3,393 bases of DNA from Escherichia phage BZ13, in sequence record FJ483838.1. The stretch is one strand, 5' to 3'. Below the pieces are notes generated by a model. It made no database searches. It saw nothing but the letters and a program-made list of their open reading frames with translations, and was not told where the DNA came from. The position numbers and the translations under genes are program-made. The first letter of the stretch is position 1. Every line of letters begins with the position of its first letter. Positions 1,645 through 3,393 of this stretch are shown piece by piece.

Positions 1645-1839
1645 TTGGGTCAGAAAGCAATTAAACATAAGGAAAACCTATGTTCCGATTCACAGAGATC
1701 AAAAAGACTCTATGTATGGATCGCACTCGCGATTGTGCTGTCCGATTTCACGTCTATCTTCAGTCATTGGATTTGGGGTCTTCTGATCCTCATTCTCCAG
1801 ACTTTGATGGACTTGCCTACCTTCGTGACGAATGTTTAA
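1645..1839 (+). CDS. lys: Lysis protein (L-type single-gene lysis), 64 codons, in a third frame spanning the coat-replicase junction; start codon uncertain (apparent UUG)
   Basis: The frame is open from the TGA at 1591..1593 to the TAA at 1837..1839. It encodes a basic N-terminal region followed by a hydrophobic segment LYVWIALAIVLSDFTSIF..WIWGLLILIL that resembles the MS2 L protein segment LYVLIFLAIFLSKFT. It has the canonical levivirus L position, overlapping the replicase 5' end out of frame. There is no in-frame ATG or GTG; the first usable start is the TTG at 1645. Confidence 0.7.
   Translation: MGQKAIKHKENLCSDSQRSKRLYVWIALAIVLSDFTSIFSHWIWGLLILILQTLMDLPTFVTNV
1665..1683 (+). promoter_or_regulatory. 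Coat-protein translational operator hairpin containing the replicase SD and AUG (ACAUA-A-GG-AAAA-CC-UAUGU)
   Basis: Stem 1665..1669 pairs with 1679..1683, A1670 is unpaired, GG 1671..1672 pairs with CC 1677..1678, and the loop is AAAA 1673..1676. The replicase AUG is 1680..1682 and the SD AAGGA is 1669..1673. This is the same architecture as the MS2 operator (ACAUG-A-GG-AUUA-CC-CAUGU), with A at loop position -5 as reported for GA-type operators. Confidence 0.8.
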
Positions 1840-3278
1840 CTAAACATCCTTCACTTGGAGACAGTAATTCGGATGCACTCCGTAAGGAATTGGCATATGC
1901 CAAACTTATGGATAGTGATCAAAGATGCAAAATCCAAAACAGTAACGGATACGACCTGAGTCATATCGACTCTGGCGTACTTAACGGCATATTACTAACC
2001 GCTAAGGCTTCAATAGCGAAGTTACTTATGGGCTTTGAATCTCACTTCCTGAACGATTGTTCATTCTCCAATGGAGCCTCACAAGGGTTCAAGTTGCAGG
2101 ATGCAGCGCCGTTTAAGAAGATCGCTGGGCAAGCAACCGTTACAGCTCCTGCTTATGACCTAGCCGTGCACGCAGTTAAAACTTGCGGACCATGGCTTCG
2201 TTATATGCAGGAAACGTATGGCGATGAGACCAGATGGTTTCGTCGGGTATACGGAAACGGTTTGTTTTCTGTTCCGAAGAACAATAAAATAGATCGGGCT
2301 GCCTGTAAGGAGCCTGATATGAATATGTATCTTCAGAAAGGTGCTGGCTCTTTTATTAGACGCCGACTCCGATCTGTGAACATTGATCTTAACGATCAAA
2401 CACGCAATCAGGAATTGGCCCGACTTGGCAGCATTGATGGTTCGCTTGCTACTATTGATTTAAGTAGTGCTAGCGATTCCGTCTCTGATCGCCTCGTCTG
2501 GGATTTACTTCCGCCGCATGTTTATTCATATCTCCACCGTATCCGCTCATCTTTCACTATGATCGATGGGCAGTTACATAAGTGGAACCTATTTTCTACG
2601 ATGGGTAACGGTTTTACATTCGAGCTCGAGTCCATGATATTTTGGGCTCTGAGTAAGAGTGTAATGTCGTACCTCGGTGTTACTGGCTTACTTGGCATCT
2701 ATGGAGACGATATAATCGTCCCCACGAAATGCGCACCCCTTCTTCTACAGGTATTATCGGCTGTGAACTTTCTTCCTAACCAGAAGAAGACGTTTACTAC
2801 CGGTTATTTCCGTGAGAGTTGTGGGGCACATTTCTTTAAAGGTGCTTCAGTAAAACCTTTTTACTGCAAGCGGCCGATGGAAACCCTTCCCGATATTATG
2901 TTACTCTGTAACAGAATTCGTGGTTGGGGTACTATCGGGGGAATATCAGACCCTCGACTCTTTCCAATATGGAAGGAGTTTGCAGATATGATACCGCCTA
3001 AGTTTAAGGGTGGATGTAACCTTGATCGCGACACTTACCTTGTTTCACCGGATAAACCTGGTAAAACATTAGTTCGTGTTGCGAAGAAACGAAGTGGTTT
3101 TAACCATAAGTTTCGTAGTGACTATGAAAATGGTCGCTATATTCATTGGTTACATATGGGATCGGGCGAAGTGCTCGAAACTATATCTTCCGCCAGGTTT
3201 AGGTGCAAACCTAATTCGGAATGGAGGACACAGATCCCGCTATTTCCTCAGGAAATAGAGGCCTGCGTTCTCTCCTGA
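1680..3278 (+). CDS. rep: RNA-dependent RNA polymerase (replicase beta subunit), 532 aa
   Basis: Largest ORF and last in gene order. Contains RdRp motif A (IDLSSASDS, Asp codons at 2457..2459 and 2475..2477), a motif B-like region (SMGNGFTFELES) and motif C YGDD at 2700..2711. Size equals the GA replicase as I recall it. TGA stop at 3276..3278. Confidence 0.95.
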   Translation: MFRFTEIKKTLCMDRTRDCAVRFHVYLQSLDLGSSDPHSPDFDGLAYLRDECLTKHPSLGDSNSDALRKELAYAKLMDSDQRCKIQNSNGYDLSHIDSGVLNGILLTAKASIAKLLMGFESHFLNDCSFSNGASQGFKLQDAAPFKKIAGQATVTAPAYDLAVHAVKTCGPWLRYMQETYGDETRWFRRVYGNGLFSVPKNNKIDRAACKEPDMNMYLQKGAGSFIRRRLRSVNIDLNDQTRNQELARLGSIDGSLATIDLSSASDSVSDRLVWDLLPPHVYSYLHRIRSSFTMIDGQLHKWNLFSTMGNGFTFELESMIFWALSKSVMSYLGVTGLLGIYGDDIIVPTKCAPLLLQVLSAVNFLPNQKKTFTTGYFRESCGAHFFKGASVKPFYCKRPMETLPDIMLLCNRIRGWGTIGGISDPRLFPIWKEFADMIPPKFKGGCNLDRDTYLVSPDKPGKTLVRVAKKRSGFNHKFRSDYENGRYIHWLHMGSGEVLETISSARFRCKPNSEWRTQIPLFPQEIEACVLS

Positions 3279-3289
3279 TAGTATCAGGA
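3273..3289 (+). promoter_or_regulatory. Hairpin embedding the replicase UGA stop codon (ucctga-uagua-ucagga)
   Basis: 3273..3278 (tcctga) pairs with 3284..3289 (tcagga), with loop 3279..3283. Confidence 0.35.
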
Positions 3290-3344
3290 CCTCCCCGGAT
3301 GGGGTGGGTGGGACCGAAAGGTTCCTATGGAGGTGATATCCTCC

Positions 3345-3356
3345 CGCCGTAAGGCG
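3345..3356 (+). other. Small hairpin with a GNRA-type tetraloop (cgcc-GUAA-ggcg) in the 3' UTR
   Basis: CGCC 3345..3348 pairs with GGCG 3353..3356, loop GUAA 3349..3352. Confidence 0.35.
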
Positions 3357-3362
3357 TTTAAG

Positions 3363-3387
3363 GTGACTAGTTTGCTTGGCTAGTCAC
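3363..3387 (+). other. 3'-terminal hairpin (8 bp stem gugacuag / cuagucac, 9-nt loop) followed by the single-stranded CACCCA tail
   Basis: 3363..3370 is the exact reverse complement of 3380..3387. The loop is 3371..3379 (tttgcttgg) and the tail is 3388..3393. Confidence 0.6.
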
Positions 3388-3393
3388 CACCCA

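Follow-up and report, generated by a model that had tools for sequence, protein, structure and literature searches.

The interval 2457–2711 of the BZ13 sequence record FJ483838 is almost certainly the palm-domain catalytic centre of the replicase beta-subunit, an RNA-dependent RNA polymerase (RdRp), of Escherichia phage BZ13 strain T72, which belongs to the KU1 subtype of genogroup II. The whole analysed stretch, hereafter the window, is 3393 nucleotides (nt) long and represents a normal genogroup II levivirus genome. The open reading frame (ORF) of the replicase is intact, its product belongs to the levivirus replicase family, and it contains six motifs with family-typical spacing and family-invariant residues. 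The interval is an ordinary and already known catalytic core of a deposited replicase, and nothing novel was found in its motifs; the protein is present in both GenBank and UniProt, and the replicase is presumably active. The value of the analysis lies in a corrected description of the motifs (D-x5-D for motif A and STMGNG for motif B) and in the mapping of residues D260, D343 and D344 onto the Qbeta structure.

Replicase motifs

The replicase ORF (1680–3278; 532 amino acids (aa), ATG start, TGA stop) is located on the plus strand, as are all the features described below. The interval 2457–2711 lies in the replicase frame and spans exactly from D260 of motif A to D344 of the GDD sequence of motif C. 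Its coordinates had been given correctly in the initial annotation, nt 2457 being the first base of the D260 codon. No stop codon was found in the interval in the replicase frame, and stops are present in the other five frames. The GDD sequence occurs only once across the three forward frames of the window.

The motifs were assessed in an alignment of 20 Leviviricetes replicases with identities down to 24%. It included the proteins of five genogroup II genomes (T72, KU1, GA, DL10 and DL20), three metagenomic genogroup II proteins, the replicases of MS2, a Qubevirus, PP7, AP205 and C-1, and those of seven environmental single-stranded RNA phages. Motif A (aa 260–266, DLSSASD; 2457–2477) is intact, as had been proposed, and D260, A264, S265 and D266 are invariant in 20 of 20 sequences. 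Its previous description as D-x4-D has to be corrected to D-x5-D, since five residues separate the two aspartates, and the same offset of six was found in all 20 replicases. The string IDLSSASDS quoted for this motif is present in the protein, although it begins at nt 2454, one codon before the interval. Motif C (aa 341–344, YGDD) occupies exactly nt 2700–2711, the place at which it had been reported; G342, D343 and D344 are invariant in all 20 sequences.

Motif B (aa 306–318, STMGNGFTFELES; 2595–2633) comprises a loop and the first part of a long helix and reads S306-T307-M308-G309-N310-G311-F-T-F-E-L-E-S318, with M308, G309, N310, G311 and F314 invariant in 20 of 20 replicases. A motif B-like segment between motifs A and C had been predicted, and it does exist there in its levivirus form. 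However, the string SMGNGFTFELES that had been quoted for it is absent from the protein because T307 was dropped, and "G-rich" overstates a segment with only two glycines. Qbeta-type phages have SSMGNG at this position. The distances between the motifs are 49 residues for A–B, 34 for B–C and 83 for A–C, the same as in MS2 and in all genogroup II strains, so the claim of the expected spacing holds; across the family, the A–C distance ranges from 77 to 100 residues.

The remaining motifs lie outside the interval. Motif F of the fingers (aa 196–212, FSVPKNNKIDRAACKEP; 2265–2315) contains the invariant residues V198, K200, R206, E211 and P212 and was modelled as a beta-hairpin (strands 193–199 and 205–210). 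Motif D (aa 362–372, VNFLPNQKKTF; 2763–2795) contains invariant N367 and K370, while motif E (aa 377–386, FRESCGAHFF; 2808–2837) contains invariant E379, S380, C381 and G382. Along the ORF, the motifs follow the canonical order F-A-B-C-D-E, and the palm motifs A (D-x5-D), B (S-x-MGNG-x-T-FE) and C (Y/F-GDD) retain the catalytic aspartates.

Protein family and structure modelling

The initial annotation had suggested a profile alignment of the 532-aa protein against levivirus replicases or structural modelling against the Qbeta replicase core, and both led to the same assignment. The protein matched the RNA_replicase_B family (PF03431) with a score of 696.8 bits, the gathering cut-off being 25 (E = 2.3e-209), and residues 18–505 were aligned to positions 14–514 of the 540-position profile. 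The Qbeta replicase chains 3mmp, 4r71, 4q7j and 3agp from the PDB were aligned to T72 residues 39–443 (a 405-residue alignment) with E ~5e-65. In this alignment, LATIDLSSASDS is paired with LATVDLSAASDS, and IYGDDIIVP with VYGDDIILP, and residues D260, D343 and D344 are paired with chain positions 274, 359 and 360. The catalytic carboxylates of the Qbeta replicase are Asp273, Asp358 and Asp359 (PMC4200798), and on the basis of the alignment, D260, D343 and D344 are their sequence equivalents.

Modelling with AlphaFold2 from the alignment of 20 replicases led to a model with a mean predicted local distance difference test (pLDDT) score of 79.8 and values above 90 through most of residues 150–440. 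In the model, the motifs fall on the canonical elements of the palm: D260 ends the beta-strand 256–260, and GDD is located at the turn between strands 339–341 and 344–348; motif B leads into helix 313–331, and motif E forms a beta-hairpin (377–380/383–386). The eight best PDB matches found using Foldseek were all Qbeta replicase (E = 5e-31 to 8e-28; template modelling (TM) score 0.66–0.68, with 0.67 for the E = 5e-31 match; 465–471 aligned columns), and the next matches were a group II intron reverse transcriptase and rotavirus VP1 with E ~2e-6. The model thus has the right-hand RdRp fold and is closest to the Qbeta beta-subunit. Towards the C-terminus of the replicase, the alignment of the family contains many gaps, and a cluster of substitutions unique to T72 among the five genogroup II genomes (V462K, V470K, R/Y480S and G/R481D) was found at aa 461–482 (nt 3060–3125).

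Levivirus replicase subunits work in complex with the host proteins EF-Tu, EF-Ts and ribosomal protein S1. Homology with Qbeta, together with the fact that the strain was isolated and sequenced, makes it probable that the T72 protein has its RdRp activity in the same complex. By analogy with the Qbeta enzyme, the two catalytic Mg2+ ions needed for nucleotidyl transfer would be coordinated by D260, with which the motif A strand ends, and by D343/D344 in the turn of the motif C hairpin. The loop and helix of motif B may position the template and the ribose of the incoming nucleoside triphosphate (NTP), and motif F may bind the NTP triphosphate. Minus-strand synthesis would be initiated de novo with the CC of the 3'-terminal CCA as template, as in the Qbeta replicase, where the initiating guanosine triphosphates pair with the CC of CCA-3' (PMC4200798).

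Functionality of the replicase and selection

The conclusion of the initial annotation that the gene encodes a functional RdRp and not a defective copy is strongly supported by the intact ORF, the motifs, the predicted fold, purifying selection and the origin of the sequence from a cultured isolate, the activity itself being predicted from the sequence and the model. The ORF is uninterrupted, and its length of 532 aa is the same as in GA, KU1, DL10 and DL20, with no indels, frameshifts or premature stops. The ratio of nonsynonymous to synonymous divergence (dN/dS; Nei–Gojobori method, T72 against KU1, GA, DL10 and DL20) was 0.09–0.15 for the whole gene, 0.02–0.08 for residues 195–390 and 0.05–0.09 for the interval. 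In the core, about 90% of the amino acids are invariant among the five strains, whereas third codon positions are invariant in only 25–55% of codons, which indicates selection on the protein.

Nothing speaks directly against this reading, which has two limits. The strain T72 is a cultured isolate of an F-specific RNA (FRNA) coliphage whose genome was sequenced by primer walking from reverse transcription PCR (RT-PCR) clones (record by Friedman et al.), and a harmful mutation outside the motifs could be present in an individual clone. In addition, C-terminal residues 461–517, the only large part of this kind, were modelled at low confidence (pLDDT < 50).

Among the rival explanations, the one that survives best is that the motifs are intact while the copy is defective: it would be a quasispecies variant picked up by cloning, or a defective genome, with an inactivating substitution outside motifs A–C, or it would fail to assemble with the host factors. 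We consider it very improbable. The origin from RT-PCR clones would fit it, as would the 12 replicase residues that are unique to T72 among the five genogroup II genomes and include the C-terminal cluster; however, every strain-unique change is located at a column that varies within the family. This also applies to R298Q, the sole change of this kind in the interval, whose column contains E in MS2. Because some 90 nt are missing from its 5' end, the deposited record is not a replication-competent RNA, but such a gap is typical of primer-limited sequencing and leaves the replicase gene untouched, and the first 16 nt of the window are identical in the five strains. A defective copy is also at odds with the lack of frameshifts and premature stops, with a length equal to that of all the relatives and with a dN/dS of 0.09 against KU1, the closest relative. 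Moreover, genomes of the T72 type were obtained later on from infectious FRNA phage populations enriched by culture.

It is highly improbable that the nucleotide conservation in the interval reflects an RNA element, such as a structure or a packaging signal, instead of protein function. The region of nt 2442–2726 does fold better than its shuffled versions (z = -4.7), but this is typical of the whole levivirus genome. Third positions in the interval are invariant in only 27–57% of codons, compared with 70–97% invariant amino acids, and synonymous divergence (dS) against the GA-type strains reaches 0.84–0.93 with a dN/dS below 0.1. Free third positions together with low dN/dS point to constraint at the protein level; an RNA structure may also be present, yet it does not account for the motifs. 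Finally, although a short motif like GDD carries little weight by itself, the idea that DLSSASD, MGNG and YGDD are chance strings in a non-polymerase ORF has practically no probability left and is already refuted by the full-length PF03431 match, the Qbeta sequence and structure matches and the 96% amino acid identity to the KU1 replicase.

Taxonomy and comparison with related phages

An exact-sequence look-up revealed that the replicase is identical to GenBank ACT66724.1 ("replicase [Escherichia phage BZ13]") and the coat protein to ACT66722.1. These accessions lie between the protein series of FJ483837 (DL10; ACT66717–20) and FJ483839 (DL20; ACT66725–28), in agreement with FJ483838 as their record. 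The record FJ483838 is listed in the literature as the genogroup II strain T72, obtained from a bird source at Talbert Marsh, California. A megablast search against phage genomes showed nucleotide identities, over 100% of the window, of 90.9% with KU1, 85.9% with DL10, 85.6% with DL20 and 85.1% with GA, while the match to MS2 was limited to about 12% of the window with ~75% identity. The window thus shows high identity along its whole length to recognised members of Emesvirus japonicum, and the phage, an F-specific RNA coliphage of genogroup II and its KU1 subtype, is Emesvirus japonicum, "Escherichia phage BZ13" strain T72.

No difference was detectable between the proteins compared and those of the deposited BZ13 T72 (ACT66724.1, FJ483838), which has the same 532-aa replicase, the same coat protein and the same record length of 3393 nt. 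The KU1 replicase beta chain (AAF67676.1, AF227250) also has 532 aa, with motifs A–F identical to those of T72, and the KU1 lysis gene has the same UUG start. It differs from the T72 protein by 22 amino acids, three of which are located within the interval (R298Q, N326K and T327S) and none inside a motif; the KU1 record additionally contains 3 nt more in the 3' untranslated region (UTR) and about 90 nt more at the 5' end. The replicases of GA, DL10 and DL20 (532 aa, 89–91% identity) have identical motifs, and these genomes share the operator hairpin and the 3' terminus with T72. They carry 48–58 substitutions relative to T72, of which 7–10 are within the interval, all between motifs.

The similarity to phages outside genogroup II is lower. 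The replicase of MS2 (genogroup I, Emesvirus zinderi) is 53% identical and has the same A-B-C spacing (49/34/83) and identical cores of motifs A, B, C and F, but it is 545 aa long, with a longer and divergent C-terminal region. The Qbeta beta-subunit (Qubevirus; PDB 3MMP, 3AGP, 4Q7J and 4R71) shares the fold, motifs and catalytic triad with T72 and differs in its identity of 32–34%, length of 586–589 aa, N-terminal extension and C-terminal domain. Note that the record NC_001890.1, which has the RefSeq title "Enterobacteria phage Qbeta", bears MX1 locus tags (MX1p1-4), and motif A of its replicase is DLSSASDT, compared with DLSAASDS in the crystallised Qbeta beta-subunit. This suggests that NC_001890.1 represents an MX1-like strain.

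Genome organization

The window contains four plus-strand ORFs in the classic levivirus order, namely maturation, coat, lysis and replicase, with the lysis gene overlapping its neighbour, and its size agrees with the ~3.4–3.5 kb expected for Emesvirus japonicum. The maturation (A) protein gene (47–1219; 390 aa) was assigned to Phage_mat-A (PF03863, E = 3.6e-61); its ATG was picked by homology, and homologous coding sequences (CDSs) are present in KU1 and GA. The coat protein gene (1235–1627; 130 aa), whose product is the exact match to ACT66722.1, was assigned to Levi_coat (PF01819, E = 1.2e-39). The lysis gene (1645–1839; 64 aa) starts with UUG, is attributed to Phage_MS2_lysis (PF11125, E = 6e-7) and has the position of the KU1 lysis CDS; it overlaps the first 53 codons of the replicase gene in another frame. 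No alternative coding was found on the minus strand, whose largest ORF has 79 aa and whose ORF within 2457–2711 has 58 aa (nt 2522–2698); neither of the two was searched against a database.

An 18-nt insertion (GGCGTAGTTCTTCAGCAT) was found at 1628–1645 directly after the coat stop codon, and a second insertion, of 3 nt, at 1660–1662. Both are common to the window and KU1 and are not present in GA, DL10 and DL20, which places T72 in the KU1 subtype. In GA-type genomes, the coat stop and the lysis start overlap in TAATG; the 18-nt insertion separates them, so that the lysis ORF of T72 begins at UUG 1645. A split coat stop/lysis start was reportedly described for KU1 by Groeneveld et al. in 1996.

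The first nucleotide of the window corresponds to KU1 nt 91, and the complete 5' terminus with its GGG... leader is lacking, about 90 nt of the leader being missing. The 16 nt at its start (ATGCCGTTAGGTTTAG), which are common to all five genogroup II strains, are consistent with a record that begins at a conserved primer site. The missing 5' part reflects an incomplete record, with no biological difference behind it, and has no bearing on the membership of the phage in Emesvirus japonicum. Related records are labelled as complete genomes, whereas the T72 record is 5'-incomplete.

Operator hairpin and 3' terminus

A translational operator hairpin, the predicted coat-protein binding site, is located at 1664–1684 and encloses the replicase AUG (1680–1682) in its 3' arm (minimum free energy -4.9 kcal/mol, z = -2.3). 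It belongs to the GA type (ACAUA-A-GG-AAAA-CC-UAUGU) and has an AAAA tetraloop and a bulged A; the loop of the MS2 operator is AUUA. The match to the Rfam model of the MS2 operator (RF02359) was below the threshold, with 18.8 bits against a gathering score of 40. Despite this weak score, the hairpin is supported by its folding, by its identity in all five genogroup II genomes and by the annotation of GA, where the homologous site is given as a potential coat-protein binding site. As established for leviviruses, binding of the coat protein to this hairpin would shut off replicase synthesis.

At the other end of the genome, the 3'-terminal CCA is located at 3391–3393 (...CACCACCCA). All five genogroup II genomes share the same last 32 nt, which end in ACCACCCA and hold an invariant hairpin (GGTGACTAG...CTAGTCACC). 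In the 3' UTR (3279–3393), 3 nt are missing near nt 3352 in comparison with KU1, GA, DL10 and DL20; this stretch is variable.

Conservation of synonymous sites in the replicase gene

It was also observed that synonymous sites in replicase codons 1–90 and 121–210 are unusually conserved among the five genogroup II strains. Codons with an invariant third position make up 73–100% in windows starting at nt 1680–1905 and 77–93% over nt 2040–2310, far above the values for the core given above. The dS for codons 1–194 was 0.16–0.25 against the GA-type strains, whereas it was 0.75–0.93 elsewhere in the gene. The overlap with the lysis gene accounts only for nt 1680–1839.

Recombination between the T72/KU1 and GA lineages was considered as a cause of the low dS in codons 1–194. 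The conserved blocks (nt 1651–1875 and 2026–2310) are the same against all four relatives and are separated by a variable stretch, which weighs against it, and a published analysis reported no recombination involving genogroup II strains. The frozen synonymous sites suggest an RNA-level constraint, such as a structure or a protein-binding or packaging site, and a mosaic history is less likely; the lysis overlap together with RNA structure is the more likely, though not proven, reason for the low synonymous divergence. The region of nt 2026–2310 folds unusually stably (z = -6.3). Tentatively, and with better support than an effect of the strain-unique R298Q (between motifs A and B) on the polymerase, nt 2040–2310 in the 5' third of the replicase gene might be a conserved RNA element, such as an internal binding site for the replicase or the coat protein, comparable to the M-site of Qbeta, or a packaging signal.

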